A stretch of 64,000 nucleotides of DNA, from contig PNJU01000002.1 of the NCBI GenBank assembly GCA_013822015.1, positions 192,500-256,499 of the forward strand, in the 5' to 3' direction. This document shows positions 706-45,956 of this stretch, one piece after another (position 1 is the stretch's first letter; each line of letters begins with the position of its first letter). The position numbers were made by a program, and so were the translations under genes. The notes beneath the pieces were generated by a model, which saw nothing but the letters and a program-made list of their open reading frames with translations, was not told the DNA's origin and searched no databases. The stretch is from Candidatus Puniceispirillum sp. Lineage in GTDB: Bacteria > Pseudomonadota > Alphaproteobacteria > Caedimonadales > UBA1908.

Positions 706-1407
706 ATGATCTTTCCCTTCACCATCATTGATTTGACCCACACACTTTCCTCAAACATTCCCACCTGGGATGGGGGATGCGGCTTTGGGCAAGAATGCTT
801 GCATGATGAGGCCACTACCCATGGAAAGGACGAGACCTTTCGTATCATGGGGCTACACATGGAGGCAGGTATCGGAACCCATATGGACGCGCCTACCCAT
901 CTTTACAAAGACGGCACACCCATCCACGCGCTTCCCCTACAGGATCTGTGCATGCCGTGTGTGGTCATTGATGTCGCCCATAAAGCCCATGCAAACTATA
1001 CAATCACCGCCGACGATATCCTCGCCTTTGAAGAAACCTACGAAAAAATTGAAAAGGGCATGTGCGTTGTGTTTCGCACAGGCTGGGCGCGCCACTGGGA
1101 AGATAGACAAGCATATCACAATAATCACGTCTTTCCTTGTGTGGGTGAGGACGTCGCAAGGCTGTTACTTGCACGCGGTGTGCGAGCTTTAGGTATTGAT
1201 ACCCTCTCACCCGACCGACCCGAAAATGACTTTATTGTGCACAAATTGTTTTTAGGACAAGGGAAGGTGCTGCTTGAAAATGTGGCAAACCTTTCAAGCA
1301 TGCCTGCCACTGGGGCCTTTGTACTTGCGCTTCCCCTGAAAATTCACGACGGGACAGAGGCGCCCTTGCGGCTTGTGGGACTTGTGATGCGAGACGCTGT
1401 TGCATAA
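706..1407 (+). CDS. Cyclase-family protein (kynurenine formamidase-like)
   Basis: 233-aa ORF with the metal-binding motif GIGTHMDAPTHLY (HxDxPxH) typical of the putative cyclase/arylformamidase family. It ends at a strong hairpin terminator. Confidence 0.7.
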   Translation: MIFPFTIIDLTHTLSSNIPTWDGGCGFGQECLHDEATTHGKDETFRIMGLHMEAGIGTHMDAPTHLYKDGTPIHALPLQDLCMPCVVIDVAHKAHANYTITADDILAFEETYEKIEKGMCVVFRTGWARHWEDRQAYHNNHVFPCVGEDVARLLLARGVRALGIDTLSPDRPENDFIVHKLFLGQGKVLLENVANLSSMPATGAFVLALPLKIHDGTEAPLRLVGLVMRDAVA

Positions 1408-1437
1408 AAAAAGGGCGCATGATGCGCCCTTTTTTAT
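1405..1437. terminator. Bidirectional rho-independent terminator between the cyclase-family gene and clpX
   Basis: aaaaaAAGGGCGCAtgaTGCGCCCTTttttt: a 9-bp GC-rich stem with a 3-nt loop, an A-run on one side and a T-run on the other. It sits between two convergent stop codons (1407 and 1457). Confidence 0.65.
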
Positions 1438-1456
1438 GTTTTGCATCGCTTAATGA

Positions 1457-2737
1457 TCAGGCTTTTGCCTTTGGTTTTGAGGCGGCAGAGGCCTTATGTC
1501 CGTCTTGATAAATCAAGAGGGGAACGGCTGTGCCATCAACAACTTCTGCGCCTACCACAACTTCCTTGATCCCTTCTTCACTGGGGATGTCGTACATGGT
1601 GTCAAGGAGCGCGTTTTCCATGATGGAGCGCAGACCTCTGGCGCCGGTCTTGCGCTCGATGGCTTTTTCGGCTACACGCACCAAAGCCTCATCGGTAAAG
1701 TTGAGGTGAACACCCTCCATATCAAAGAGCTTCTGGTACTGCTTCAAAAGGGCATTCTTTGGCTCTTTCAAAATCTCAACCAGCGCCGGCACGTCCAGAT
1801 CCTCTAGGGTTGCCACAACGGGCAGGCGTCCCACGAATTCAGGAATGAGGCCATACTTCAAAAGATCCTCAGGCTCAATACTGGCAAGCAAATCGCCCAC
1901 CCGGCGGTCATCTGGGGATTGCACATCCGCACCAAAGCCAATGGAGGTGCCTTTTCCGCGGGAGGCGACAATCCGATCAACACCGGCGAACGCACCACCA
2001 CAGATGAAGAGGATATTGGTCGTATCCACCTGCAGGAACTCTTGCTGAGGATGCTTACGTCCACCCTGTGGTGGGACGGACGCAACGGTACCCTCCATAA
2101 TCTTGAGAAGCGCCTGCTGCACACCCTCGCCGGACACGTCCCTTGTAATGGATGGGTTATCAGATTTACGTGAAATCTTGTCCACCTCATCGATATACAC
2201 GATACCGCGCTGAGCACGCTCAACATTATAGTCAGCAGATTGCAGAAGCTTCAGGATAATGTTTTCAACGTCCTCACCAACATAACCGGCCTCCGTCAAA
2301 GACGTAGCATCAGCAATGGTGAAAGGCACATCAAGAATACGTGCCAACGTTTGTGCAAGAAGGGTCTTACCGCAACCCGTTGGGCCAATCAGCAAAATGT
2401 TTGACTTGGAAAGCTCGACCTCGCCGTTCTTTTGAAGATTGTCAATACGCTTGTAATGGTTATAAACCGCAACGGCCAAAACGCGCTTTGCACGCTCTTG
2501 TCCAATGACATAGTCATCCAGGACCTGGGCAATACGCGCCGGAGAAGGAATGGTGCCGTCGGAAAAAGTCTCCGTCCCTGCGCTCTCTTCCTTAATGATT
2601 TCAAGACACAGGTCAACACACTCATCACAGATAAAAACGCTTGGACCTGCGATAAGCTTTTTGACCTCGTGCTGGCTCTTTCCGCAAAAAGAACAGTGGA
2701 GACCTTCTTTACCTTTATCCATGTCTGATTTGCTCAT
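1457..2737 (-). CDS. clpX: ATP-dependent Clp protease ATP-binding subunit ClpX
   Basis: 426 aa with an N-terminal zinc finger ([27 protein letters not shown]), a Walker A motif (GPTGCGKT) and full-length ClpX-like sequence. Confidence 0.97.
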
Positions 2738-2887
2738 CTCTTTTCACTTTCTACCCGTGTCTTGCGACCCTCACGAGTTTGGGATAATTTCCCGCTCCCA
2801 TGGTTTCAGAATGCCCTAAAGTTCATAAAAAAACGTTAACAAAGCAAGATAATTTTAAAACGCTTTTTAACAATTGGGCACATTTAC

Positions 2888-3514
2888 CTAGGCCGCTTGC
2901 TTATGCTTTCGTGGCGCCACAACTTCGTCAATCAGACCAAAGGTCAGGGCCTGCTCCGCCGACATAAAATTATCGCGCTCCATGGCAGGAATAATCACGT
3001 CCATGGGCTGCTTTGTTGTTTCTGCGTAAATCCGGTGGAGACGTTCTTTCATCTCTTGGATTTCTTTTGCTTGGATCTGAATATCCGTTGCTTGACCTCT
3101 TGCACCACCGTGGGGTTGGTGAATCATCACGCGTGAATTGGGAAGGGCGCGGCGCATGCCAGGCTCACCAGCGGTCAAAAGAAGAGATCCAGCTGAGCAA
3201 GCTTGTCCAATACACATGGTCGCCACAGGACAACGCACATAACGCATGGTGTCGTACATGGCAAAGCCAGCCGTTACGGCGCCACCGGGTGAATTGATAT
3301 AGAAAGAAATTTCTTTGCTGGGGTTTTCGGATTCCAAGAACAGAAATTGTGCACAAATGAGCGCCGCAATATCATCATTCACCTCACCGGTCAAAAAAAC
3401 GATACGCTCTTTGAGGAGGCGAGAGTAAATATCAAAAGACCTCTCTCCACGGTTAGTTTGCTCCAACACCATGGGAACAAGTGTGTTTTGAAACGTGTCG
3501 AAAAGATCTCTCAT
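2888..3514 (-). CDS. clpP: ATP-dependent Clp protease proteolytic subunit ClpP
   Basis: 208 aa; [18 protein letters not shown]...YINSPGG...[11 protein letters not shown] (catalytic Ser context) ...MIHQP. Confidence 0.97.
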
Positions 3515-3638
3515 GCTAAAGATACTCCTAGTTATATTTTTTTCTTACACTACATTCTAGACAAGCGTCCCGCAAAGAATCAACCTTTATTAAGACGCTT
3601 GGCTAGAAAAAGTATCTTTTTTAAGATGTAGCAAGACC

Positions 3639-5006
3639 TTATTCGTCGTCTCCTTCTGTTACCTCTTTGTAAGCGGCAACAAGATCGTCGAGGGGCACGT
3701 CCTTAAAGGTTGACTTGGACTTATCCAAAATAAGCGCAACCACCTTATCCTCGAAAATTGGGGCACGCAGGCTTGCCAGGGCGGCCTCATTCTTTTGGAA
3801 GTACTCAATGACTTCGCGGTAGCGAGATGGATATGCACGCGCGGTATCAATGATGGCGCGCTCCAGTTCCTTCTGTGTCACACCGACCTCATACGCGCGT
3901 CCGATTTCCGCCAATACCAGACCCAAGCGCACGCGGCGGTTGGCAATCTCTTGGTACTGAGCGCGGTCATTGTCGATTTCCTTTTGAGAAGGCTTCTTGG
4001 CCTTACCCTTTCCATCCTTCGCGTCATCATTATCGGCACCCAGGCGTGCTTCATACTGCTGCCAGATGCTCTTGAACTCTGCGTCCACTAAGCCTTGTGG
4101 CACATCGAACTTGCACTTCTCAGCCAAGTCATCAAGGACTGCGCGCTTGGCAACAAGGAAAGACATACGCTCGCGCTCTCCGCCAATTTCGCGGCTCGCT
4201 GCCTCACGTAGGGCTGCCAAGTCCTTAAAGCCAACCTTTGTTGCAAAGGCGTCATCAAGCTCAGGCAAAACCTTTGTATGGATCGCCGTCAAAACAATCT
4301 TGAAGACAGAGTCTTTTCCGGCCAGCTCTTTGGCGTGGTAGTCAGCGGGGAAAGGCACAGTAATATCAAAAGCGTCGCCTGGCTTGTGGCCTTCAATTTG
4401 CTCTTCAAAACCAGGGATAAACGTGCCGCTACCAAGCTCTAGACGTGCGCCTTGTGCTTTTCCGCCATCAAAGGCAACACCGTCAATAAAGCCTTCAAAA
4501 TCAATGATGACAACGTCGCCCTTCTTGGCGGCGCGCTTTGTCTTAATTTCCTCAGTGATGGCATTGGCACCACGAAGACCTTCCAGGGCCTTATCAAGCT
4601 CGTCCGCAGGTACATCGCTCTTTAGGCGCTCATAGCTCAGGCTCTCAAGCTTTGGCGGCGTAATATCAGGGAGAATTTCGAAGTTGATCTCAAGGAGCAG
4701 GTCGCCCTTCTCCTCAAAAGATTCAATTTTTACGTCGGGTCGCAGGGCAATCTTGAGGGAGTGCTCCTTCACAATGGCATCAACGCCGTCTTGAACAGCC
4801 GCCTCGAGGATCTCAGCCTGCACGCTTGCGCCGTACTTTTGCTTCAGGATGGGGAGTGGCGCTTTGCCGGGACGAAACCCAGGGATCTTTGCAGTTTGAC
4901 CAATTTTCGCCAGCTTCTCGTTCAAACGCAAGTCCAAATGGGACTTAGGAACGGTGACTTTAAACGCTCTTTTCAAGCCTTCACTGCTCAGGGCTTTGAT
5001 TTCCAT
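3639..5006 (-). CDS. tig: Trigger factor
   Basis: 455 aa with an N-terminal ribosome-binding motif (GFRPGKAP) and an internal FKBP-like region (DFEGFIDGVAFDGG). It lies upstream of clpP-clpX. Confidence 0.95.
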   Translation of the reverse strand: MEIKALSSEGLKRAFKVTVPKSHLDLRLNEKLAKIGQTAKIPGFRPGKAPLPILKQKYGASVQAEILEAAVQDGVDAIVKEHSLKIALRPDVKIESFEEKGDLLLEINFEILPDITPPKLESLSYERLKSDVPADELDKALEGLRGANAITEEIKTKRAAKKGDVVIIDFEGFIDGVAFDGGKAQGARLELGSGTFIPGFEEQIEGHKPGDAFDITVPFPADYHAKELAGKDSVFKIVLTAIHTKVLPELDDAFATKVGFKDLAALREAASREIGGERERMSFLVAKRAVLDDLAEKCKFDVPQGLVDAEFKSIWQQYEARLGADNDDAKDGKGKAKKPSQKEIDNDRAQYQEIANRRVRLGLVLAEIGRAYEVGVTQKELERAIIDTARAYPSRYREVIEYFQKNEAALASLRAPIFEDKVVALILDKSKSTFKDVPLDDLVAAYKEVTEGDDE

Positions 5007-5046
5007 GTGCTCTCAATCCTTAATGTTGCTAATTTTCGTCAAGAAA

Positions 5047-5131
<85 letters not shown>

Positions 5132-5235
5132 ATGCGTGACTGTTTATCTAACCGACTTGTCCTTGATAACCTCGATTGGCAGAAAAAGCAACATGGGTTA
5201 GGATGGAAAATAAAATTTATTCTCGAGGGGATTTT

Positions 5236-5730
5236 ATGGATTTTAACCCAGCGCTTTGCCCGCCTTCCCCGTTCCATGCAACAGCTATCTATATGGATGG
5301 GTGTGGTATTCTTCTTCTAGGGCCCCCGGGCAGTGGAAAATCAGATTTGGCCTTGCGCTTGATCATGGAACGGGGGGCGCGCCTTGTTGCGGATGATCTG
5401 TGTGAAATTCTTCACAAACCAGATGGTCTGTGGGTACAGTGCCTCAAGGAAGGCGAGCGCCTTTTAGAAGTGCGCGGCCTGGGCATAGCCGCTATGGGTG
5501 AGGGACAATGGATCAAGTGTGCGCCCCTTGCCTTTGCGCTTCACCTTACCCGCGACAAAGACATTCCCCGCGAACCTGTCAGGCAAACCCTTCAAGGCAC
5601 CCACCTGCCCTTGTATGCATGCGACCCCTTTTGCGCCAGTGCGGCCGCTAAGATCAGCTTGCTTGTGCGCCACCATAAAGAAGAGGTGCGCCTGCTTTGG
5701 CCCGACACCCCCCTGCCCCATGCGGCCTGA
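5236..5730 (+). CDS. hprK: HPr kinase/phosphorylase C-terminal-domain protein (short alphaproteobacterial type)
   Basis: P-loop GILLLGPPGSGKSDLALRLI followed by GARLVADD. The ATG at 5236 is preceded by GAGGGG. The track start at 5176 lies only 45 nt from the tRNA and is probably too far upstream. Confidence 0.7.
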   Translation: MDFNPALCPPSPFHATAIYMDGCGILLLGPPGSGKSDLALRLIMERGARLVADDLCEILHKPDGLWVQCLKEGERLLEVRGLGIAAMGEGQWIKCAPLAFALHLTRDKDIPREPVRQTLQGTHLPLYACDPFCASAAAKISLLVRHHKEEVRLLWPDTPLPHAA

Positions 5731-5763
5731 CAGAGGCGCCCAACTACATGGAAAGATGTCATC

Positions 5764-6159
5764 ATGAACGCAAAATCACTTCTCGTGTCCTGTCTGGCAG
5801 TGCTTGCCTGCTGGCCCACCCATGCAGCAGGGGACGAGCTGACCCAAGGCCCCTTTGAATCGCCCTTCCCGCCCGCCCAAGCCTCTTTGGGTAGTTGTGA
5901 GCACGCCCTTGATGAGGAAGCGCTGGCACGCATCATGGGCGATTACCAAGCACAGCTGCGAACCCTCATGGGGACACTCTTTCCCCAAACGCAACCGCAC
6001 GCGCTCTCCTCTCAAGACGACACTGCACCCTCCTCCCCTGGCCCAAACGCAGCCCAGGGCAGTGATCTAACCCCCGCCTCAATATCTCAGGAGGCCTCAT
6101 TGACGGCCCCAACGGCATCCAGTGCAGGCTTCTTTCTGACCCAGGACGAGACGGCATAA
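5764..6159 (+). CDS. Small secreted hypothetical protein (131 aa)
   Basis: N-terminal signal-like sequence MNAKSLLVSCLAVLACWPTHAAGDE, with a P/S/T/Q-rich C-terminal half. No family recognised. Confidence 0.5.
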   Translation: MNAKSLLVSCLAVLACWPTHAAGDELTQGPFESPFPPAQASLGSCEHALDEEALARIMGDYQAQLRTLMGTLFPQTQPHALSSQDDTAPSSPGPNAAQGSDLTPASISQEASLTAPTASSAGFFLTQDETA

Positions 6160-6249
6160 GCACCCCCATGCGGCGCCCAGGGGCAACCCTTGGGCCGCCA
6201 TGCAGAGGAACGTTTTTTTCTGAAAAAGAAGTAATACTGACTTATTTTC

Positions 6250-6278
6250 TTGAATGTTTGCAAACATGTGTTTATTTT
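6250..6278 (+). promoter_or_regulatory. Candidate sigma70-type promoter with an embedded 14-nt perfect palindrome, upstream of the RNase III-like gene
   Basis: TTGAAT (6250-6255), a 17-nt spacer, then TATTTT (6273-6278). The spacer contains ATGTTTGCAAACAT (6254-6267), which is its own reverse complement. Confidence 0.25.
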
Positions 6279-6307
6279 GTACTGTTTTTTAACAGACAAG
6301 AAGGAAT

Positions 6308-8077
6308 ATGATGTCAATAAAACACCTCGGTCGACTGTTTCTCTCAGCAATGGTCGCAACCGCCCTGTACGCACAACCAAGCTGTGCGAGCAAACCCAAT
6401 AAAGAAAAAATCCCAGTCATCTGTGACCTTTTCTCCCAAGAAAATGATATCGATTATCCGGGGATTCAGGCGCACCTGCACTACACCTTCAAGGATCCCA
6501 TGCTCCTTAAAACCGCCCTTCGTCCCATGTTGCCCACGCCCCTACAGGGCGATAAAAACGCATATGACCTTCTAGAATTTCGTGGGGACGCGGTGCTTAA
6601 GCTGATCACGATGGACAGGCTCTTCGAGATCCTGCCCGGGCATATACGAGGACAGATGTCCACCTTGTGTGGAGACTTGGTGATGAATCACTGGTTGACA
6701 GAATACGCTCTGTGGAATTTGGATCTTGAGCGTTACTTACCTTGCCCCAGTGGATCTTACAAAGTCTGCGATGTCATGGAGGCACTCGTAGGCGCCGTTT
6801 ATGTGGATGGGGGCCCAAACGGACTTAGCCACGCCCGGCGCTTTGTCACCCTATTCTTGGACGATGAAACGCTCCATAACAAAATGCAAGAGATGTCTAA
6901 GACCTCTACACGCTTGGTCTTTACCCCCCAAATGACCCAGGATCAAAAGGATGCTCTGGCAAAGATCTGCAGGCCTGAGCGCCTAGGTAGTACCAACGCC
7001 AAGTCGCTGCTTAACGAGCTTCTTTTGGATCTCTTTGATGACAGGCCTGAATACACCACCCATTTTGAAAAGGGCGAGGATGGACATGTGCTTTTTCGCA
7101 CCCACGTCATTGGCGCCCAGATTGGCAAGACGAATCATGGCCACGGGCGCACCTGTCAAGAGTCTGAGGAAAATGCCGCCCGCCAGGCCATCAACACTCT
7201 GGCGCAAGCCCCCCTTTATTCCACCGGAAGCCCCAGTGGATCACCCAACAGCTTTCGTGTGCAACTGAAAGAAATGCTGGACTTTCTTGATCTTAAACTC
7301 ACAACGCGCAGCACAATGGAGGGAAAACCCCACGAACCCACCATTGGCTTTGAGTATCTTCTGGGTGAGAAACCCATCGGTGTTGGCCAGGGGTCCTCAA
7401 AAGCCCAGGCTGCAGAAATGGCGGCCGGGCAAGCCTGTGACGCCATCATCCAGTTAGAAGCGCAAAAACGCGCATCGCGCCACTCCTTAAGAGACTCTAT
7501 CTGGACAACACTCCAAGCCAACCGCGCAGCCCTGCAGGCCGCCACCCTCGCCAAACAAGCAGCTGCAGCCGCAGCAAGAAAAGCCGCCAAGACACCTGCT
7601 GTTTACTCGGCAAGTTCTGGAAGTGTTTTAGCGCCAGCGAGCGTGTCTTCTGCTACCGCCTCACCGGCTGCGTCCATCATCGGCACCGCTGTAGCAGCTT
7701 CAGTTGCTCCAGTAACCCCACCAGCGCCAACCCTGGTCACCTCTGTGCCAACAACGCCACCTGCTGCATCCGTGACCAACACCACGGTGGTTTCGACATC
7801 GGCGGCTTCAGTCCCCGCCCCCACAAAAACAGTGACATCCCAGGCAAATAAAGCCAAAGGAAATGGAAAACTGCCCAAACAAGGGCACATCCAAAAACCA
7901 AAGCCACCTGTGGCCACGGGCGCCCCGTCGGTTGCTGTGTCGCCACACAAGGGCAAAACCCCACAGTATGTTGGACCAAAGGCTGGTCCCAGAGCTCACA
8001 TAAAGATGCAACCTCAAACCAATGGAGCCCAAAAACCAGGATCTACCTCGTCCCATGCGCCAGTAAAAGCGGCCTAA
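6308..8077 (+). CDS. Signal-peptide-bearing RNase III-like protein with two dsRNA-binding domains and a low-complexity tail
   Basis: 589 aa. The leader is MMSIKHLGRLFLSAMVATALYAQPSCAS. The RNase III signature is LLEFRGDAVL...CDVMEALVGAVYVDGG, with the catalytic E/D positions retained. dsRBD 1 is AKSLLNELL...PEY...GHVLFRTHV...GHGRTCQESEENAARQAINTL. dsRBD 2 is GKPHEPTIGFEYLLGEKPIGVGQGSSKAQAAEMAAGQA. The C-terminal ~190 aa are A/P/S/T/V-rich and end lysine-rich. Confidence 0.8.
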   Translation: MMSIKHLGRLFLSAMVATALYAQPSCASKPNKEKIPVICDLFSQENDIDYPGIQAHLHYTFKDPMLLKTALRPMLPTPLQGDKNAYDLLEFRGDAVLKLITMDRLFEILPGHIRGQMSTLCGDLVMNHWLTEYALWNLDLERYLPCPSGSYKVCDVMEALVGAVYVDGGPNGLSHARRFVTLFLDDETLHNKMQEMSKTSTRLVFTPQMTQDQKDALAKICRPERLGSTNAKSLLNELLLDLFDDRPEYTTHFEKGEDGHVLFRTHVIGAQIGKTNHGHGRTCQESEENAARQAINTLAQAPLYSTGSPSGSPNSFRVQLKEMLDFLDLKLTTRSTMEGKPHEPTIGFEYLLGEKPIGVGQGSSKAQAAEMAAGQACDAIIQLEAQKRASRHSLRDSIWTTLQANRAALQAATLAKQAAAAAARKAAKTPAVYSASSGSVLAPASVSSATASPAASIIGTAVAASVAPVTPPAPTLVTSVPTTPPAASVTNTTVVSTSAASVPAPTKTVTSQANKAKGNGKLPKQGHIQKPKPPVATGAPSVAVSPHKGKTPQYVGPKAGPRAHIKMQPQTNGAQKPGSTSSHAPVKAA

Positions 8078-8096
8078 AACCCTTGGCCTAGACTTT

Positions 8097-8127
8097 TGGG
8101 TTAGCGCTGTGGAGGGGCGCTAACCCA
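8097..8127 (+). terminator. Hairpin downstream of the RNase III-like gene (no U-tract)
   Basis: TGGGTTAGCGC tgtggaggg GCGCTAACCCA: an 11-bp perfect stem 20 nt after the stop codon. Confidence 0.35.
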
Positions 8128-8336
8128 GCGGGCCTGAGAAAGTGCACCTCAATCCCCGCCCTCCCGCACTCAAATCCCGTCATGGCACGCACACAATAAT
8201 CGGCACCACTTAGCCCAAGAGAGCCAAAGGATGAAAAAATGGGCTGGTAATATAAGCCACTCACTCTTTCCCTATATCCATAATTAACAACTTTCTCTTG
8301 ACTCTTGTGATCTCTCCACTTTTTTTTCATTTTTTA

Positions 8337-8365
8337 TTGACAAAATCCAAAACAAAACACAAATA
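8337..8365 (+). promoter_or_regulatory. Candidate promoter of family A gene 1
   Basis: Perfect TTGACA (8337-8342), a 17-nt spacer, then CAAATA (8360-8365), with a T8 tract just upstream. The ATG at 8395 is preceded by GAGAGAGAAG. Confidence 0.3.
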
Positions 8366-8394
8366 CAACTTGTATTTAAAAGAGAGAGAAGTTT

Positions 8395-9303
8395 ATGACA
8401 TATATTAAAGCCCTTACACTTTGCACACTACTGGCACATATTCCCCTTTACGCATCAAGCGGAGTCCTTGACGTTGTTGAGCCCACATCCTCAAAACCAA
8501 CGCGGTCCATGCCTGCAGTATTATCAACGCTGCCCGAGACCATGCAGGCCTTGCACACCATCAAATCCATGTGCAAACCTGAGGAGCGTCTTCAGTTTAC
8601 GGCCTCCTCTAAATGGTACTCGCCCACTGCAGCAAATGTTCACACTGTTCTTTCCCACGATTTTTCCCCCTCACATCTGGGCGCGGCCCTGCGCTTTTGC
8701 GCCTCCATTACAACTGAGAACGCGCCCTTTCTAAAGGCAGTTCTTAAAGGCGCGACGTGGCAAATGTCCTTGGATCTTTTACCAGCATCTTTGGGGCTTT
8801 CCCATGAGGTTCTGCAGGGAGCAGCAGGCATTGAAGATCTGAGTGCACGCCTCACATTCCTCAAGCAATCACCACGCCCAGACACCTGGGTCCTTGGCAT
8901 GTTGGGTTCTGATCCCCTCATTGATAGCGCCGTCTTGGAGCACCACGTGAGAGAGCGCATCCTTATGAATCCCATCGGCATGAGCGCATTTTTTGTCAAA
9001 AGCCTCAAGCATGGCGATACGCTCACGCGCATGCGCCTGACAAGTTTTCTTCTCCACACGGATCCTTTGAGCGTGGGCGCGCATTTAAGTGATAAAAAAG
9101 CCCGTTTTGAAAAAATTGGGTTTCGCCAGAACTCACGCCTTGCAAGGACCCTCGACGCAAAGAAAGTGCTACCGCCCTTTGGGTTTCTGCTTGACCGCAG
9201 CCCAGACGGCAATGTCACACGCATCACCACGCGTTATCCAGACTTCTGGGCTCCTTTGCCGGCATGGACCCACTCACCGTCCCAGCACCGCCCTGTAGAA
9301 TAA
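8395..9303 (+). CDS. Secreted hypothetical protein, paralog family A member 1 (302 aa)
   Basis: Leader MTYIKALTLCTLLAHIPLYASSG. It shares a core with three other ORFs in the window: WY.PT...F.P.HLGAALR...ENAPFLK.VL...LLPA.LGLS...RL.FL...PRPDTW..GMLG.DPL.D...F.V..LK.G...TRMR.T.FL...PD...P.P.WT..PS. Confidence 0.75.
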   Translation: MTYIKALTLCTLLAHIPLYASSGVLDVVEPTSSKPTRSMPAVLSTLPETMQALHTIKSMCKPEERLQFTASSKWYSPTAANVHTVLSHDFSPSHLGAALRFCASITTENAPFLKAVLKGATWQMSLDLLPASLGLSHEVLQGAAGIEDLSARLTFLKQSPRPDTWVLGMLGSDPLIDSAVLEHHVRERILMNPIGMSAFFVKSLKHGDTLTRMRLTSFLLHTDPLSVGAHLSDKKARFEKIGFRQNSRLARTLDAKKVLPPFGFLLDRSPDGNVTRITTRYPDFWAPLPAWTHSPSQHRPVE

Positions 9304-9435
9304 TCATACGTCGCCTCGCTTTTCTTTGCCAAAGGCGGGGCGCACGACCATTTGCCCATACAAAGGGATGCCATTGACCTTCCTGCATAACCCTTTAGAA
9401 TGAAAAACATACGCGGCCTTACATGAGGTGACGGC

Positions 9436-10200
9436 ATGTTCTATGTTTGGGTTTTTCTGACCTTTGTTGCCCTTACGCGTGAAGACGCCTTCGCGTCATC
9501 CCATAATGACGTCTCCCAAACATTTGAGGAAACCTCTCACCCTTCCTTCAAAAGAGCCCTTGATTGGTACCCACCAAGCGAGGATGAGATGAAAACCGTC
9601 ACGTCCTGGGGATTTGAGCCCGCACATATGGGGGCAGCCCTACGCTACCGTGCTTTTATCAAGTCCGAAGATACACCCGTCCTTCAAAAGGTACTTGCTA
9701 GCGCCCCTTGGGAGGAGGCTTTTTCCATGATTGCACGCGCTGCCGGGGCGCACGCGACGGACCTTGCGCTTGCAGCTACCCTCCCCCTTCCAGAGCGCCA
9801 AGAATTCCTCAGGGGCAGCCCAAGAGAAGACACCTGGATTTACGCACATATTGGCCTTGATCCCGATATCGACATGCATGTGATGACCTACCATATGCGG
9901 CGCCTGCTGGGTGAAAACCGCCCCCAAACAGAGGAGACTCTCCTCAACATGGTCTGCGCGCGTGACGAGCTCACCAAAAAACGCGTCGCAACATTTTTGT
10001 GGAACGCGCTTTACGATGAGCACTTCGGATACTGTTCTCGTTACGCGGCCCTGGGAATTATTGACGCCTCCCCCCTCATGAGACAGGTTCAGCATATGCG
10101 AGGGCTTGTCTTGCACGGCCTTGTGCATGAAGGAGCTGACGGCACCTCCAAAGGTCGCCTGCGCGTCGTTGCACCCTGGCTTGCCCCCGCCCGCCTTTAA
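9436..10200 (+). CDS. Secreted hypothetical protein, divergent family A member 2 (254 aa)
   Basis: Hydrophobic N-terminus MFYVWVFLTFVALTREDAFASS, with no basic n-region. It keeps the N-terminal family A motifs (WYPPSEDEM..GFEPAHMGAALRYRAF...DTPVLQKVL...SPREDTWIY), but the C-terminal third diverges. RBS is GAGGTGA. Confidence 0.65.
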   Translation: MFYVWVFLTFVALTREDAFASSHNDVSQTFEETSHPSFKRALDWYPPSEDEMKTVTSWGFEPAHMGAALRYRAFIKSEDTPVLQKVLASAPWEEAFSMIARAAGAHATDLALAATLPLPERQEFLRGSPREDTWIYAHIGLDPDIDMHVMTYHMRRLLGENRPQTEETLLNMVCARDELTKKRVATFLWNALYDEHFGYCSRYAALGIIDASPLMRQVQHMRGLVLHGLVHEGADGTSKGRLRVVAPWLAPARL

Positions 10201-10244
10201 AGGTAATACCCGTAATTCCTTGGCAGTTTATAGAAATTTGTTTT

Positions 10245-10273
10245 TTGACAAATGAGGAAGAAGGGGTTAGTGA
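10245..10273 (+). promoter_or_regulatory. Candidate promoter of family A gene 3
   Basis: Perfect TTGACA (10245-10250), a 17-nt spacer, then TAGTGA (10268-10273). The ORF-track start at 10245 is the TTG of this hexamer. Confidence 0.3.
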
Positions 10274-10310
10274 TGAAGAGTCGGTGCGGTTTTTCCAGGA
10301 GTCACACACC

Positions 10311-11282
10311 ATGCGTACACTCGCCTCTCTCACCCTTGCGATCCTTTTTTCTTGTAGTTCCCTTTACGCGTCCAACGCACACAAGCGCAAAATAGATGAG
10401 CTCATAGGCTCAGACTCTGACTCAGACTCAGACTCAGACTCAGAGACATTTATGCCTATCAGTGCACACGTGGCCCTTGGCCAGGAGGAAGGAGGCGAGC
10501 CATATATCCCCGAAGACCTTGTGCCCCATCTCAAGACCTTTGTATCCCCGTGCGATCCCGAAAAAGAAATGGATCAGTTTATTGAACCCCTCGCGTGGTA
10601 CCGCCCGACACCCGAGGAGCTGACTTCCATCACGACCATGGGATTCGAGCCTCGTCACCTGGGCGCGGCCCTGCGCATGCGCGCGCACCTAACGCTTGAG
10701 AACACGCCCCTGCTTAAAGGAGTGCTCAAAGACAGTGATATCCCACAATCCCAGCGTTTGCTGCCCGCCGCCATGGGCCTTTCGAACGGGCAACTCAGAG
10801 CGGCGGCAAAGATTGAGAACATCGAAGAACGCCTCAATTTTCTCATCAATGCACAAAGGGAGGACGCGTGGATCTTTGGCATGCTAGGCGCCGACCCAAT
10901 CCTTGACAACCTCGCCATCAACGCCAACATGAGGGCACGTGTTCTTATAAACCCAGACAAGATGAGCTCGTTTTTCATCCGCAACCTCAAAGAAGGGACC
11001 AACATCACACGGATGCGTTTCACAGGCTTCCTTAGCGAGCTGACCGGCTTAATTACCGACAAGCTCAGCCGCGCAAACCGACTGGGATTTGAGGACAACT
11101 CCCACGTCATGGAAACCGTCAAAAAGAAAGGCCTTCCCCGCCCCTTTAGCGCAATCTTCTGGGAAATGCGCCTCAATGATGGCAAGGTCATGCCACGTAT
11201 CACAATCAAAAAGCCCGATTACCTCGACCCCATGCCCCTGTGGACCTATAAGCCGTCCACTTATCTCGACCCTATCCCATGA
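10311..11282 (+). CDS. Secreted hypothetical protein, family A member 3, with an (SD)n tract
   Basis: The ATG at 10311 is preceded by AGGAG. Leader MRTLASLTLAILFSCSSLYASNA, then an SDSDSDSDSDSE tract, then the full family A core (WYRPTPEELTSITTMGFEPRHLGAALRMRAHLTLENTPLLKGVL...GMLGADPILD...PDYLDPMPLWTYKPSTYL). Confidence 0.75.
   Translation: MRTLASLTLAILFSCSSLYASNAHKRKIDELIGSDSDSDSDSDSETFMPISAHVALGQEEGGEPYIPEDLVPHLKTFVSPCDPEKEMDQFIEPLAWYRPTPEELTSITTMGFEPRHLGAALRMRAHLTLENTPLLKGVLKDSDIPQSQRLLPAAMGLSNGQLRAAAKIENIEERLNFLINAQREDAWIFGMLGADPILDNLAINANMRARVLINPDKMSSFFIRNLKEGTNITRMRFTGFLSELTGLITDKLSRANRLGFEDNSHVMETVKKKGLPRPFSAIFWEMRLNDGKVMPRITIKKPDYLDPMPLWTYKPSTYLDPIP
10409..10446 (+). repeat. In-frame hexanucleotide microsatellite (TCAGAC/GACTCA)n encoding (Ser-Asp)n
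   Basis: ctcagactctgactcagactcagactcagactcagag: about 5-6 tandem 6-nt units inside family A gene 3. Confidence 0.85.
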
Positions 11283-11386
11283 GGTAGCGCGCCAGCGCTC
11301 TCTCACGCAGAAAAAATGGTGCTTAAAGACTCCCACAAGAAACGCGATCGTCATTAATTATTTATTGTATTGTTTTTTTATTATAC

Positions 11387-11415
11387 TTGACAATAAAACT
11401 ATGATCTGATATTTC
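11387..11415 (+). promoter_or_regulatory. Candidate promoter in an AT-rich intergenic region
   Basis: Perfect TTGACA (11387-11392), a 17-nt spacer, then TATTTC (11410-11415), within the visibly AT-rich stretch 11350-11420. Confidence 0.3.
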
Positions 11416-11482
11416 AAGCATCGGACAGTAAAAGTGCCGTTCTTATTCACTTGTCCCGGCACAAGAAAGGAGAAGTAACATC

Positions 11483-12664
11483 TTGCGTAAACTATTAGCC
11501 AGCGCTGGCATTTTTATTCAATTCACATCATTTGCATTCGCATCGGACCCCACCCTACAAGACCTGCACTTGGTCATTGGCTCGACCCGAGGCGGATATT
11601 TGTCCCAACCTCTGGCAAAAAGAGTTTACCAGGAGGCAAACGCAGACCTATCCCACGCGGGTACATTCTCGGGAAAAGCCATCACCGTTGACATCGCTCC
11701 CTGCGAAAACCCCAAACTTGCAAAACGTCACTGGCAAGCGGACGCGGAAACCTTTGAGTTTCCGGGCACCATCCAAAATGTTTATCTTGAAAGGCTGTTT
11801 ACCTTTGACCAAAAATCGGGTGATCACACAAAAGACCATATCTCGAACGTCCTTCAAAATCTCACAAAGCACATGATTCCTGCTCAGAACAAGGTTGAGA
11901 TTGAGTGGCACCCTTGCGTCGGCATGGCGTATCTGCCCCCCAAGGCGAGTAAAGAGGAAAGGGAGCACATCCTTAACACCCAAAGGCGACAAAATCCTTT
12001 TCAGGGCGTCATGGATATTAACGAAGTTCTCACCGCCACCAAACTTGCTGTTTTCGACAGTGTGAACTTAGACGGCGTACCCAACAAGTCCTACATTGAT
12101 GCGGCCAATGCTTTTAAAAAACCCCTCACCCAGCTCATCAACTTTTATGTGGGCTCGAAGCCTAGCCTCGTGCGCACGCAGCTGATTCAACGTCTGAGAT
12201 TTGAAGCCAATGTTTTGACGCTGTTAAGCCAAGATCCGAACAAAAGATCTGTCCCCCTTCTGGGCTCCATTACCGCTGATTTCGGCAAATTAGATGACAC
12301 AACATTTTCAGTAGTCGCATCAGATCCAGAAGACGACGGTAAAATTTTGGTACGTGACCGCCAGGGTTATTCTTATCTTTATGACACGCAAGAAGAGGTC
12401 GCAAAAGCCGTTTCCAGAGGGGGTACTGTGCGCGGCGTCCTCCATGGTTATATGTCCTTTATGACTGGCTCTTGCCTCAATTTCTTGTGGAGCGATATGG
12501 CTGTTGAGATTCAAAAAGGGCTTGTCCAAGAAAAGCTTGCCTCACTCGGTTTTCGTGCCATTGAGATCAAGCGTAAAAAGAGCCCACACAACCGCCGTCA
12601 AAATGTTCATATCATCAGCACGGTTTATGACCCAGGCAACGCTGTAGAAGAACAAAAAGCCTAA
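11483..12664 (+). CDS. Secreted hypothetical protein (393 aa, TTG start)
   Basis: TTG start preceded by AAGGAGAAG. Leader MRKLLASAGIFIQFTSFAFASDP. No recognisable domain. Confidence 0.6.
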   Translation: MRKLLASAGIFIQFTSFAFASDPTLQDLHLVIGSTRGGYLSQPLAKRVYQEANADLSHAGTFSGKAITVDIAPCENPKLAKRHWQADAETFEFPGTIQNVYLERLFTFDQKSGDHTKDHISNVLQNLTKHMIPAQNKVEIEWHPCVGMAYLPPKASKEEREHILNTQRRQNPFQGVMDINEVLTATKLAVFDSVNLDGVPNKSYIDAANAFKKPLTQLINFYVGSKPSLVRTQLIQRLRFEANVLTLLSQDPNKRSVPLLGSITADFGKLDDTTFSVVASDPEDDGKILVRDRQGYSYLYDTQEEVAKAVSRGGTVRGVLHGYMSFMTGSCLNFLWSDMAVEIQKGLVQEKLASLGFRAIEIKRKKSPHNRRQNVHIISTVYDPGNAVEEQKA

Positions 12665-12773
12665 AGCACCCCTCCCATGACCGACGTCTGAATCCTTTTT
12701 CAGATGTCGGTCACTGTTCTCATTATGCCGCAACTGACCTTTTCCAGAAGCCAACATTACTGTCAAAAAAAAC

Positions 12774-12801
12774 TTGAAAAGAAGAAATATCTTCCTATAT
12801 A
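12774..12801 (+). promoter_or_regulatory. Candidate promoter of the UIM-like/CAP gene
   Basis: TTGAAA (12774-12779), a 16-nt spacer, then TATATA (12796-12801), with an A8 tract immediately upstream. Confidence 0.35.
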
Positions 12802-12880
12802 CATAAGAGCATTGGGAGATTTTATGACACTCTCCTCAATATTTCTTCTGTCCACTCCCTCAAACAATAGGACGACCCAC

Positions 12881-13969
12881 ATGAAAAATCTGAAGAAAAT
12901 CCTCCTCGTTTCACTTCTAACAAGCGGCGCCTTTGTAGCTAGCGCGACTCATTATTCAGACGAGGAAATGAACGCCATGGCAGCTGCTGCCAGAATCAGC
13001 CTCCATGACCTACGCGCACTTGGTCAGCAGATGCCCTTGGATGATTTCTACGCCCCCGTTGCGTACATGTTCGCAGCTCAAGAGGGGCGCGGCGCATCGG
13101 ACCAAGCCACAAACGACTATCTCTTTGCCCGTCAGCTGGCACAAGGCAACACAAGCACTCCAAGAATGTCTGAACCCGACGCTGATTTTCTCCTTGCCCT
13201 GCGCCTTTGCGAAGAGGGGCCTCAGGCGCCAAGCACACGCTCTGCGGCCACACCGTCCCCTCAGCCTCACGCCCCGCAAGACACAGAAGCTGATTTAGAG
13301 CTTGCTCTGCGCCTCTACGAAGAAGAAAGTCAAGCTCGGTTTGTGCCCACAACCATATCCCCTACCCTCCTTGGGACCACGCATGCGCCGCACGTGAGCG
13401 TTCAGGACGAGGACTACCTCCTTGCCATGAGGCTCTTTGAGGAAGAAAGGCAAGCTGCGTCCACGGTGCGCGTCATATCTACGCAAGCACCGCAAACCGC
13501 TGCATCTTCTCACGTCGCTGCCCCGAGCCAGGAAGATGAGGAACGCTCCTTTTTTGATCTGACCAACGCACGTCGCCAGGAGCACGGCCTTGGGCTTCTG
13601 ACATGGAACCCGCTGCTTGCCCAGATCGCCCGGGAGCACTCCCAAAAAATGGCCGATACCTTCACCTTTGCCCATGACATTGAAGGCAAGAGCTTTGGTG
13701 ATCGCATTGAAGGGCGCTACAACGGCTCCATGGCCGGGGAAAACTTATATATGTCTACAGCTGCCTACAAAGTGAGCGAGCGCGGCATCACCCCTTCTTC
13801 TGTGAAGTATTCATCCATGGCAGAGGCCGTCGAGGGGCTCATGAACTCACCAGGACACAGGGAAAATATTTTGAAGCCAGAGTTTAATGAGCTTGGCGTA
13901 GGAATTATCGTCACCGCCCTTGGTGGGCAGAAGTACTGGACGCAAGTGTTTGGCAGGAAGCAGGACTAA
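12881..13969 (+). CDS. Secreted protein with tandem UIM-like acidic/LALRL repeats and a C-terminal CAP/SCP/PR-1 (YkwD-like) domain
   Basis: The ATG at 12881 is preceded by AGGA. Leader MKNLKKILLVSLLTSGAFVASA. Repeats are DEEMNAMAAAARISLHD, NDYLFARQLAQG, PDADFLLALRLCEEG, TEADLELALRLYEEE and QDEDYLLAMRLFEEE. C-terminal CAP motifs are FFDLTNARRQEHGL...AREHSQKMA...GENLY...LMNSPGHRENIL...FNELGVGI...YWTQVFG. Confidence 0.75.
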   Translation: MKNLKKILLVSLLTSGAFVASATHYSDEEMNAMAAAARISLHDLRALGQQMPLDDFYAPVAYMFAAQEGRGASDQATNDYLFARQLAQGNTSTPRMSEPDADFLLALRLCEEGPQAPSTRSAATPSPQPHAPQDTEADLELALRLYEEESQARFVPTTISPTLLGTTHAPHVSVQDEDYLLAMRLFEEERQAASTVRVISTQAPQTAASSHVAAPSQEDEERSFFDLTNARRQEHGLGLLTWNPLLAQIAREHSQKMADTFTFAHDIEGKSFGDRIEGRYNGSMAGENLYMSTAAYKVSERGITPSSVKYSSMAEAVEGLMNSPGHRENILKPEFNELGVGIIVTALGGQKYWTQVFGRKQD

Positions 13970-14002
13970 ACCCATCTTATTCCTTACTTGAGAGCACCAC
14001 GC

Positions 14003-14032
14003 CAGATGCCGTTTCACCAGAAACGGCATCTG
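14003..14032 (+). terminator. Hairpin downstream of the UIM-like/CAP gene (no U-tract)
   Basis: CAGATGCCGTTTC acca GAAACGGCATCTG: a 13-bp perfect stem with a 4-nt loop, 34 nt after the stop. Confidence 0.4.
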
Positions 14033-14286
14033 TGCTGCCCCCCCCTCTTTGATGTGGCCCCTGCATCTTGCGTGAGATGACGTTGTGGCATATCTGCGCA
14101 GTGAAGCGCCATCAGGGAAAATTGGCAGAAGCGACACTACCAGCTTAGACTGCGACCACACGGAGGCAGACGCTTAAACCAACCAAGGCTCACATAGAAG
14201 CCTTTGGAACACAAGATAGGCCGGAGCCAGCACCGACTTCCCCTTTGACCTGATTCATTAACCTTAAAATCTCCCACATATTCGCT

Positions 14287-14315
14287 TTGACAAGAAGCAT
14301 AAAAGTTTCCATGCT
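14287..14315 (+). promoter_or_regulatory. Candidate promoter of family A gene 4
   Basis: Perfect TTGACA (14287-14292), a 17-nt spacer, then CATGCT (a weak -10). The ORF-track start at 14287 is the TTG of this hexamer. Confidence 0.25.
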
Positions 14316-14346
14316 TTCCAGTGTGTCAACACAGGAGAAGAGCACT

Positions 14347-15300
14347 ATGAAATCTATTTTTTATGCGACATCCTTAGTCCTTAGCTTTCTCACGATCGCC
14401 CCACATATCCAGGCATCAAATAGTCCTTTGGATGCCCTTGATGTAGAGGAAGGGACGAAAACCGTGCGCCCCGTCGGACTTGACGTTGCTCTTAATGTCG
14501 GATACGGCAACGAAATAAACATACCAAGCACACTCGTCCAAAGTCTGAATGACTTTGTCACGTCATGCGCCGGTAAAAGTGAGATGAATCAGTTCCACAG
14601 CCCCTTCATGTGGTATCGTCCCACGCCAGAAGAACTCACGCGCATTTCCGACCTTGGGTTCGCGTCATGTCACCTTGGTGCGGCCCTACGCATGCGCGCG
14701 CATCTCTCTTGCGAGAACGCGCCTCTTATCCAAAGAGTGTTAAGAGACAGCAGCTACGCAAAAGCACAGTTTCTGCTCCCTGCCGCCATGGGGCTTTCCC
14801 ACACACAGCTTGAAGAGGCCGCCAACATCGAAGACGTTCAGGAGCGTCTCGATTTCTTGATACAAGCCCCACGCCCAGATACATGGGTTTATGGTATGCT
14901 GGGGGCGGATCCCCTTCTTGATCACCTGGCCATCGAGACGAGTATCAGGACGCGCATTGCAAATAACCCAGACCTGATAAGTTCGTTTTTCGTTCGCAAC
15001 TTGAAGGAAGGCACAGATCTCACGCGCCAGCGCATCACGGGGTTTCTTTTGCAAGTCACCGGGAATGTGTCCGAGGGAAAAACACGCGCAGAACACCTTG
15101 GCTACAGCAAAGTGTCAAACGTTGTACACGCCCTTCAAAAGAAAAAACTCAAACGCCCCTTTGGCCTCTTCCGCGAAGCGTTTCCTTTCACTGATGGCAG
15201 CGCAGGCACGGATCTTAAAAATCACACGCCCGATTATCTTGATATAATGCCCCAATGGACATACACTCCGTCGACCTATCTCAAGCCTCGGCGCTCATAA
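14347..15300 (+). CDS. Secreted hypothetical protein, family A member 4
   Basis: The ATG at 14347 is preceded by AGGAGAAG. Leader MKSIFYATSLVLSFLTIAPHIQASNS. Full family A core, closest to member 3 (WYRPTPEELTRISDLGFASCHLGAALRMRAHLSCENAPLIQRVL...GMLGADPLLD...PDYLDIMPQWTYTPSTYL). Confidence 0.75.
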   Translation: MKSIFYATSLVLSFLTIAPHIQASNSPLDALDVEEGTKTVRPVGLDVALNVGYGNEINIPSTLVQSLNDFVTSCAGKSEMNQFHSPFMWYRPTPEELTRISDLGFASCHLGAALRMRAHLSCENAPLIQRVLRDSSYAKAQFLLPAAMGLSHTQLEEAANIEDVQERLDFLIQAPRPDTWVYGMLGADPLLDHLAIETSIRTRIANNPDLISSFFVRNLKEGTDLTRQRITGFLLQVTGNVSEGKTRAEHLGYSKVSNVVHALQKKKLKRPFGLFREAFPFTDGSAGTDLKNHTPDYLDIMPQWTYTPSTYLKPRRS

Positions 15301-44116: not shown

Positions 44117-44240
44117 TATTTCTCTCTCCAAGTGTTATAAACAGCAACTTAACGTCGACACCATTATAAGGCGCGCCATAAGCTGGCCTGACATATAGGA
44201 AGAAAAAAACACCCTGTCAACGAAACGGGAAAAATAAATT
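44073..44240. repeat. Dispersed direct repeat, copy 1 (leader plus 5'UTR/promoter of family C gene 1)
   Basis: agggctgtcgccaaa..cattgttttaaaaaggttattgtgcattattt.tctctccaagtgttataaaca...cttaacgtcgacacc...ggcgcgccataagctggcctgacatataggaagaaaaaaacaccctgtcaac recurs almost verbatim at 45583-45750. Confidence 0.85.
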
Positions 44241-44293
44241 TTTAGGTACTGCGCGTACGAAGGAAAACCTTTACGTGCTCTGCTTGCACGCAG

Positions 44294-44331
44294 CATAAGC
44301 GCCCTGAACAGACCTGAACAGGGCGCTTATG
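44294..44331 (-). terminator. Hairpin downstream of family C gene 2 (no U-tract)
   Basis: CATAAGCGCCCTG aacagacctgaa CAGGGCGCTTATG: a 13-bp perfect stem 12 nt after the stop at 44343. Confidence 0.4.
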
Positions 44332-44342
44332 TGTCAGTGGAA

Positions 44343-45626: not shown

Positions 45627-45750
45627 TATTTTTCTCTCCAAGTGTTATAAACAACAGCTTAACGTCGACACCTTTAAAGGGCGCGCCATAAGCTGGCCTG
45701 ACATATAGGAAGAAAAAAACACCCTGTCAACAAAAGTGGAAAAATATATT
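45583..45750. repeat. Dispersed direct repeat, copy 2 (leader plus 5'UTR/promoter of family C gene 2)
   Basis: Near-identical to 44073-44240; I saw only a handful of substitutions or indels by eye. Confidence 0.85.
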
Positions 45751-45894
45751 TAAAGTGGAAACAAGGCCCAAAGATTGGGCCATCGATGGGGAAAAGGCCG
45801 CCCACTGTCAGCCTATAACGAGAACAATTTCATTTCGTGCGCAGGAAACGATGCAAGCGACGCGTGTCGCAATCGAAATTACAAGGGAGCTATA

Positions 45895-45929
45895 AAACAA
45901 AACCCCCTTGCGTTTTGCGCGCAAGGGGG
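45895..45929 (-). terminator. Rho-independent terminator of family D gene 1
   Basis: CCCCCTTGCG ttttgcg CGCAAGGGGG. On the minus strand it is followed by TTTTGTTTT, and it lies 28 nt after the stop at 45957. Confidence 0.55.
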
Positions 45930-45956
45930 CTGCATCATAGCTAAGATTAAAAGCTA

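Follow-up and report, generated by a model that had tools for sequence, protein, structure and literature searches.

Sel1-like-repeat proteins, such as LpnE, EnhC and LidL of Legionella and the Hcp family of Helicobacter, occur in multiple copies, carry Sec leaders, and are built of all-α repeats that form binding scaffolds in the periplasm or for host targets. A protein family of comparable outline is encoded in a stretch of bacterial DNA deposited as Candidatus Puniceispirillum sp. (assembly GCA_013822015.1, contig PNJU01000002.1, positions 192,500 to 256,499; the whole stretch of 64,000 nucleotides is called the window below). Four genes between window positions 8395 and 15300 specify its members, here called family A. 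An earlier note, made by a model from the letters alone, had described them as an unrecognised family of secreted proteins and wondered about an effector or surface repertoire in a host-associated bacterium. The analysis bears out that observation and, in part, the interpretation. The proteins are probably exported; as to "four-member family", the four paralogs are real, but they do not stand alone: they are the single-repeat form of a larger tandem-repeat superfamily.

A further point of reference lies within the lineage itself. The GTDB order Caedimonadales corresponds to a part of Holosporales sensu lato; every characterised member of that lineage is associated with a host, in most cases a protist, and how Holosporales-type symbionts interact with protist hosts is acknowledged as poorly understood (PMC11909080). 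Other authors count Caedimonadales among the intracellular nucleotide parasites, and others have recovered them from single ciliate cells. Holospora obtusa has stage-specific periplasmic proteins of 89 kDa, 63 kDa and 5.4 kDa, at least one of which is released to the host in infection (summarised in PMC11909080). The deposited label of the window looks uninformative. The sequence is close to that of CAED1, a metagenome-assembled genome (MAG; GCA_020161545.1) of 1.88 Mb and 52.8% G+C from a phosphorus-removal bioreactor, which GTDB assigns to Alphaproteobacteria, Caedimonadales, family UBA1908 (PMC9723799); ClpX, ClpP and Tig are 99–100% identical between the two, with synonymous divergence (dS) of 0.2–0.3. 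This placement, in a lineage endosymbiotic in protists and presumably so in this genus, lends independent support to the earlier guess of a host-associated organism.

The family A open reading frames (ORFs) and their repeat units, the latter scored with a dedicated hidden Markov model (HMM), are as follows; aa stands for amino acids, and a slash marks a putative cleavage site:

8395–9303, + strand: member 1, 302 aa; leader at aa 1–20 (…HIPLYA/SS), linker at 21–72, WYxP motif and 56-aa repeat at 73–132, terminal module at 133–245, tail at 246–302.
8641–8790, + strand: single 56-aa repeat unit of member 1, aa 83–132 (59 bits).
9436–10200, + strand: member 2, 254 aa, its linker short, its C-terminal tail divergent and the PDY…WT motif missing; leader MFYVWVFLTFVALTREDAFA/SS, lacking a basic n-region.
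9577–9744, + strand: single 56-aa repeat unit of member 2, aa 48–103 (58 bits).
10311–11282, + strand: member 3, 323 aa; leader, then an acidic linker with KRK and (SD)n runs; core at aa 84–323.
10608–10775, + strand: single 56-aa repeat unit of member 3, aa 100–155 (63 bits).
14347–15300, + strand: member 4, 317 aa; two unrelated leader-bearing genes separate it from members 1–3.
14623–14790, + strand: single 56-aa repeat unit of member 4, aa 93–148 (55 bits).

The four ORFs lie where the earlier note had placed them, and every pair aligns significantly by BLASTP (E from 1e-26 to 5e-106). Members 3 and 4 are the closest pair, as had been proposed (E = 5e-106, 49% identity); member 1 matches both of these at E ~1e-64, and member 2 matches the others at E ~1e-26. 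Paralog identities range from 28 to 49%, and an alignment of all four contains 49 invariant columns. By these alignments homology is far beyond chance and the family is real. Six-frame profile searches with hmmsearch revealed no additional member in the window. The NCBI hypothetical proteins C0514_02305 and C0514_02310 have the same sequences as members 1 and 2, respectively. Judged by the sequences upstream, the ATG starts picked for the four genes are correct: Shine-Dalgarno-like motifs lie 5–14 nucleotides before each ATG (GAGGTGA for member 2, AGGAG for members 3 and 4, a purine-rich run for member 1), and the alternative, longer TTG starts have no such motif. A scan for promoters and terminators gave counts that do not exceed the shuffled expectation.

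The earlier note listed ten shared motifs. They are indeed collinear and practically absent from shuffled sequences, but, taken to the letter, W-Y-x-P-[TS] alone is present in all four members; the remaining nine each match two or three, and member 2 fits four of the ten. The same note held that member 2 had lost its C-terminal third, and this proved incorrect. The alignment of member 2 with member 4 extends to residue 295 of the latter's 317, and only the final PDYxxxMPxWT motif is absent. It is short mainly because its N-terminal linker has 27 aa, against 62–79 aa in the others, with the missing terminal motif as the smaller part. Moreover, no part of member 2 is better conserved between orthologs than its C-terminal 39 residues (92% identity; ratio of nonsynonymous to synonymous rates, dN/dS, 0.07), and the same tail occurs in a separate relative of 178 aa, P0011.

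Relatives are few. A profile search with HMMER, run exhaustively over 1.84 billion representative proteins, gave 17 matches at E ≤ 1e-3, among them near orthologs or paralogs (P0002, P0005, P0006, P0007); divergent small proteins (P0009, 340 aa; P0011, 178 aa); and long proteins with matches along many stretches (P0008, 1320 aa and 13 stretches; P0010, 995 aa; P0012, 1248 aa; P0013, 901 aa; P0016; and P0019). A scan of 185,579 species genomes, made with an alignment of close family A sequences, found the family in CAED1 only. So narrow a distribution is not that of a widely conserved housekeeping periplasmic family. Two tandem-repeat members of the superfamily, P0013 and P0014, sit on other contigs of the window's own genome. 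A word-indexed search with the repeat alignment gave 0 matches from 149 candidates and is uninformative rather than evidence of absence; the same holds for a word-indexed search with the C-terminal domain of the giant relatives, which found one fragment and missed even P0008 and P0012.

The long relatives reveal how family A is built. Profile positions ~80–143 are repeated as many as 13 times in P0008, P0010 and P0012, and positions ~115–255 occur once, after the repeats. The recurrent element is a repeat of about 56 aa, with the consensus SPERLRFVAEADFEPEHRAAALKVAAHLTPEKIPLLKALLEGVTDPEAQSILKAA; the solitary one is a terminal module of about 110 aa, present in single copy after the repeat or repeats of family A and the giants alike. 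The repeat HMM counts 13 tandem copies in P0008, 13 in P0010, 10 in P0012, 8 in P0016 and 9 in P0019, and exactly one in each family A member, where scores of 55–63 bits equal in strength those of copies in the giants. In the terminal module, seven residues (G, L, L, G, D, R and F) are invariant across the diverse 17-sequence alignment A3, and a W is nearly so. All four family A members thus share the superfamily pattern of at least one ~56-aa unit followed by a single terminal module with the invariant residues. Because repeat and module are the building blocks of the giants, family A is the minimal, single-repeat, capped form of the superfamily. The tail, PDYxxxMPxWTYxPS, is specific to family A.

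The giants themselves have 3–13 tandem repeats in about 500–1300 aa, are mostly leader-bearing, and come from related bacteria. Three of them (P0008, P0012 and P0013) carry an extra C-terminal domain of about 450 aa, for which Pfam and the PDB hold no relative. Their isoelectric points are 5.3–6.3, and those of three of the four family A cores are 8.5–9.6. Repeats within one protein have a mean pairwise identity of 0.29–0.36, with many variable positions; in sequence this variation resembles that of protein-binding solenoids rather than code-like repeats of the transcription activator-like (TAL) effector type. A second superfamily locus adjoins gatC/gatCAB: contig L006 encodes three consecutive leader-bearing repeat proteins (825–7685; 13, 9 and 4 units), and L007 encodes two (7315–11705) in a syntenic setting, with gatC, BufA1 and TetR flanks in common.

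A small divergent member, P0021, lies on contig L008 in different company, beside an ankyrin-repeat protein of 525 aa:

L008 1223–2755: TLC ATP/ADP translocase.
L008 6362–7465: patatin-like phospholipase.
L008 11004–12581: ankyrin-repeat protein, adjacent to P0021.

This repertoire, typical of intracellular bacteria, indicates an intracellular life for the carrier of P0021.

Known families offer no home for these proteins. The domain had been called unrecognised, and it is: scans of the four members against Pfam, NCBIfam, PHROGs and PADLOC found nothing, and a profile search of PDB sequences gave no match. PHROGs and PADLOC thus lend family A no phage or defence identity. The HMMER search and the Pfam scans turned up no eukaryotic homolog and no eukaryote-like domain. 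Models for known helical repeats (Sel1, TPR, HEAT, ARM, ankyrin) do not match the family A cores, P0008, P0010 or P0016 in Pfam even at E ≤ 10. By these searches family A and its ~56-aa repeat are genuinely new, absent from Pfam, NCBIfam and PDB sequences. Three candidate relationships were rejected: the 56-aa unit as two half-repeats of 28 aa (hhalign probability 5%); the terminal module as degenerate repeat copies (~2%); and matches of an artificial fourfold consensus concatemer to T2SSK, DUF1678, PurS and HEAT models, which are absent in the real proteins and hence are summation artefacts.

Structure prediction yields a confident core. AlphaFold, given member 3 with six sequences, returned a poor model (mean predicted local distance difference test score, pLDDT, 53.7), in which the first ~98 residues, leader and linker, score below 50; the linker is predicted to be disordered where modelled, that is, in member 3. 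Residues 84–323, given the 17-sequence core alignment, were modelled with a pLDDT of 91.7 and a predicted template-modelling (TM) score of 0.86. The model has 13 helices, four of which span the repeat, followed by a β-hairpin and an extended tail; the helical part is of very high confidence. With this core model, Foldseek found no match among PDB structures (best E 0.35, TM at most 0.24) and none in BFVD. As predicted, the family A core is a confident, novel-looking fold.

Part of the member 3 linker (10383–10433) is low-complexity and acidic: a KRK cluster, then an (SD)6 run, both kept in the CAED1-type ortholog P0005.

Every member begins with a hydrophobic leader, as the earlier note had seen, and each leader ends in a site like those of signal peptidase I: LYA/SS, AFA/SS, LYA/SN and IQA/SN in members 1 to 4, directly after hydrophobic cores of 11–13 residues. 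The combination of hydrophobic core and small residues at −3 and −1 recurs in the orthologs, where the leaders are kept, and in most giant relatives; among P0008, P0010, P0012 and P0013, only P0013 as called lacks a leader. Family A is probably Sec-exported, with cleavage by signal peptidase I after the conserved [YFQ]-A. The earlier word "secreted" can be kept in the sense of probable Sec export, and not beyond it, since no route past the periplasm was identified. A lipobox ([LVI][ASTVI][GAS]C) at the leader end is not conserved, and its canonical form, LIAC, occurs only in P0005, the member 3 ortholog. In the window, leader cysteines stand in the contexts LFSC (member 3) and LTLC (member 1); members 2 and 4 have none.

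Within the window the genes belong to a + strand block at 5764–15300: a 131-aa ORF, an RNase III-like gene, members 1–3, a 393-aa unknown, a CAP/YkwD-domain gene and member 4. Synteny is conserved in four other assemblies, L001 (a Logan run), L002/L005 (CAED1), L003 (ENA) and L004 (JGI), where an hprK-like gene is followed by three family A genes, an unknown of ~400 aa, a CAP gene, family A member 4 and metQIN; L004 stops at the third family A gene. Selection was estimated by the Nei-Gojobori method between the window and CAED1 (L003 values are identical, and those of L001 similar); ortholog pairs were used, because paralogs only 28–49% identical are expected to be saturated at synonymous sites. 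The values are:

Member 1: dN/dS 0.30, 86% aa identity.
Member 2, against the ortholog P0004: dN/dS 0.245, 77% aa identity.
Member 3: dN/dS 0.16, 80% aa identity.
Member 4, against the syntenic gene: dN/dS 0.26, 55% aa identity, with dS saturated (1.4).
clpX, clpP and tig: dN/dS 0.02–0.03, 99–100% aa identity.
metQIN: dN/dS 0.05–0.09, 95% aa identity.

With gene-wide ratios of 0.16–0.30 and bootstrap upper limits of at most 0.44, the four genes are real and constrained. Selection on family A is purifying but relaxed. Nonsynonymous change is 10–70 times faster than in the nearby clpX, clpP and tig, and to this extent the earlier phrase "rapidly diverging" holds: the family outpaces the housekeeping genes beside it by far, which is no sign of positive selection, as all gene-wide dN/dS intervals lie below 0.44. 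In three of the four members the linker shows the lowest conservation of any region (34–65% identity); in member 3 it is 76% identical, and the tail and signal peptide are lower. The repeat and the module are ~88–94% identical between orthologs in members 1 and 3, and 61–82% in members 2 and 4.

Two genes at the edges of the block stand out against L002: the hprK-like gene (5176–5730; dS 2.1, 58% identity) and member 4 (dS 1.4, 55% identity). Genes between and outside them have dS of 0.2–0.7 against CAED1, and the saturation at the edges suggests allelic replacement or recombination. The member 4 ortholog in L001 has TGA (6706–6708) in place of TGG, the codon for the invariant Trp of the WYxP motif, with the remaining frame intact; its product is found on two contigs. 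Either recent pseudogenisation or inactivation, or else readthrough or recoding, would account for this codon.

Together, these features suggest a model, to which we give a probability of roughly 55%: family A would consist of lineage-restricted, Sec-exported, non-enzymatic α-helical proteins with a binding or scaffold role at the envelope or at the symbiont-host interface. Each precursor would comprise a signal peptide; a fast-evolving linker of 27–79 aa; one ~56-aa repeat of four short helices; the ~110-aa module; and a β-hairpin with an aromatic tail. Signal peptidase I would cut the leader after [YFQ]-A; the proteins would work in the periplasm or envelope or, once released, where symbiont and host meet; and the four paralogs would recognise different partners. 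Binding or scaffolding, rather than catalysis, is most likely because conservation across the superfamily falls mainly on structural residues (Gly, Leu, Phe and Trp, plus one Asp and one Arg) and predicted surface positions are variable. Export with cleavage, the binding function and any action on a host are what we infer from the features above.

Several points weigh against this model. The binding function is argued solely from the lack of a catalytic-looking motif and from the helical-repeat architecture. Member 2 is the weakest case for export, as its leader has no basic n-region and carries charged residues ahead of the cleavage-like site. A uniform leader heuristic is positive for all eight consecutive genes of 5764–15300, versus 14 of the 37 other genes in the window (Fisher p = 0.0015), but it is crude and permissive, and flags membrane and cytoplasmic proteins too. 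Moreover, a Sec signal reaches the periplasm only, and neither a secretion system nor an outer-membrane route was identified; the window contains no type IV or type VI secretion genes. A type VI system is thought typical of the Caedimonadales/Holosporales lineage. Type VI systems do not, however, take substrates with Sec leaders. Host association is shown for characterised relatives in the order, and we infer it for this MAG and for family UBA1908; the two source genomes known so far were recovered from bulk environmental or bioreactor samples.

How far the proteins travel divides the two nearest alternatives. As host-directed effectors, they would be released after Sec export by a type II-like route, in vesicles, or through a Holospora-like discharge of the periplasm, and would bind protist proteins, with paralogs diversifying under host pressure. 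The lineage is endosymbiotic and Holospora periplasmic proteins do reach the host; the family is multi-copy, has a variable linker, and changes at nonsynonymous sites 10–70 times faster than clpX, clpP and tig; the nonsense codon in one ortholog is consistent with birth-and-death turnover; the surrounding genes, CAP-domain and RNase III-like included, all bear leaders; ankyrin and patatin genes adjoin the divergent member; and the KRK cluster and (SD)n run are kept in the linker of member 3 and its ortholog. Yet no pathway past the periplasm was found, gene-wide dN/dS is well below 1 (in few lineages), and there is neither a eukaryote-like domain nor a eukaryotic homolog. An effector role is plausible but tentative, with the odds against it. 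Conversely, the proteins could be lineage-specific housekeeping components of the periplasm or envelope, such as organisers of the cell wall or outer membrane or partners of the giants, with no direct action on a host. A leader of Sec type only, purifying selection, stable synteny between the hprK-like gene and metQIN in all relatives, conserved positions that are structural rather than catalytic, and giants that adjoin gatCAB, a housekeeping neighbourhood, are all compatible with such a role. It is made doubtful by the extremely narrow distribution (17 of 1.84e9 proteins, one species genome), by a substitution rate far above that of the flanking housekeeping genes, by the nonsense codon in one ortholog (the gene itself is not lost), and by the presence of four diverged paralogs in place of a single conserved copy.

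Two further alternatives concern the N-terminus and the origin of the block. The leader might be an uncleaved signal-anchor tethering the protein to the inner membrane, as the missing basic n-region of member 2 would allow; small-x-small sites right after the hydrophobic core, kept in all paralogs and orthologs, and cores of only 11–13 residues, typical of cleaved signals, speak against a tether. Member 3 could instead be a lipoprotein, with LFSC, and LIAC at residues 12–15 of P0005, a canonical lipobox, conforming to L-[FI]-[SA]-C; members 2 and 4 lack the cysteine, and in member 1 a non-permissive Leu occupies position −1. Either form of attachment seems quite unlikely. Finally, the cluster might be cargo of a mobile island recently acquired at tRNA-Leu. 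A tRNA-Leu gene lies just upstream (5047–5131), the segment 5764–8077 is absent from all related loci, and the hprK-like gene and member 4, at the block edges, have saturated dS suggestive of recombination or replacement. However, in each related assembly of sufficient length the family A genes, the 393-aa gene and the CAP gene are found at this same place; their G+C content of 0.51–0.54 is that of the rest of the window; library scans of the window found no integrase, transposase or phage family; and the family is found within this clade only. Synteny, composition and the lack of mobility genes largely rule out such an origin for the family A block, which we regard as very improbable.

A bolder version of the favoured model, binding or scaffolding at the envelope or host interface, can also be sketched, and we consider it unlikely as a whole. 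The ~56-aa unit would be a new solenoid fold, a modular recognition scaffold with a variable surface, exported by Caedimonadales symbionts toward protist hosts. Family A would then provide released effectors, or soluble competitors or regulators of the giants, each with a distinct host target, and would form a host-manipulation cluster with the exported CAP and RNase III-like neighbours.

Those neighbours, and other features of the window, are:

5047–5131: tRNA-Leu, just upstream of the block.
5764–6159, + strand: 131-aa leader-bearing ORF.
6308–8077, + strand: 589-aa protein with a leader (…ATALYA/QP), an RNase III domain, a double-stranded-RNA-binding motif and a tail of ~270 aa rich in Pro, Ala, Ser and Thr.
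11483–12664, + strand: 393-aa leader-bearing protein inside the cluster, at the same position in L001–L003 (all related loci long enough); dN/dS 0.20.
12881–13969, + strand: leader-bearing CAP/YkwD-domain protein inside the cluster (Pfam PF00188, 1.5e-17), syntenic in relatives.
41945–44131, − strand: 728-aa ORF.
44343–45641, − strand: 432-aa ORF.
45957–47156, − strand: 399-aa ORF.

The RNase III of the 589-aa protein has both catalytic signatures intact (LLEFRGDA and CDVMEAL) and matches Aquifex RNase III at E 1.3e-12. Because this gene and the 131-aa ORF upstream are absent from all four syntenic relatives, the pair represents a genome-specific insertion. For a lineage of protist symbionts, an RNase III that is apparently exported is unusual. 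For the 393-aa protein, Pfam and the other library scans returned no family. The CAP/YkwD protein has three acidic helical repeats (DADFLLALRLCEEG, EADLELALRLYEEES and DEDYLLAMRLFEEER) between leader and CAP domain; their likeness to ubiquitin-interacting motifs is superficial, and no Pfam model matches them at E ≤ 10. The three adjacent ORFs at 41945–47156 have no Pfam match, and their N-termini carry a nearly identical leader, M[EQ]RKIMHNNLFKTM.LATALVS…; they probably form another paralogous family of exported proteins, the second in the window.

The organism is uncultured, orphan exported families are common in such genomes, and family A is a family of this familiar kind. Nevertheless, the locus supplies a candidate set of exported proteins, conserved in one clade, for a poorly understood symbiont-protist interaction. 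Moreover, the definition of the ~56-aa repeat is a handle for annotating the giant "hypothetical" repeat proteins of these genomes.

Relatives to set beside family A are the superfamily giants P0008, P0010, P0012 and P0013, which share the ~56-aa repeat, the terminal module, the same invariant residues and the same clade. They differ in having 3–13 repeats, in three cases the extra domain of ~450 aa, and a locus beside gatC, whereas family A has one repeat and a tail of its own. TAL-effector-like repeats are likewise helical tandem repeats of secreted proteins in host-associated bacteria, and units of both open with an [ST]-P-E helix cap. They are, however, near-identical units of 33–35 aa with two hypervariable residues, against 56 aa and 29–36% identity here; moreover, whole proteins of the family A superfamily are not basic and give no sign of nucleic-acid binding.

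Sel1-like-repeat proteins agree in general design: multiple copies, a Sec-type leader, a helical repeat, no catalytic motif, and copy and repeat numbers that vary between paralogs. There is no sequence relation, and because all HMM tests were negative, family A stands outside the Sel1-like-repeat and other known repeat families. The units differ as well (about 56 aa and four predicted helices versus a helix pair of 36–44 aa), and family A combines a single unit with a unique terminal module and hairpin tail. The Holospora obtusa periplasmic proteins, compared by description only, are also orphans of Holosporales sensu lato directed first to the periplasm; they belong, however, to a bacterium whose specialised infectious form has an enormously expanded periplasm, a feature without known counterpart in family UBA1908. 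By analogy, family A would resemble Sel1-like-repeat proteins in function and, within its own lineage, the released periplasmic orphans of Holospora.

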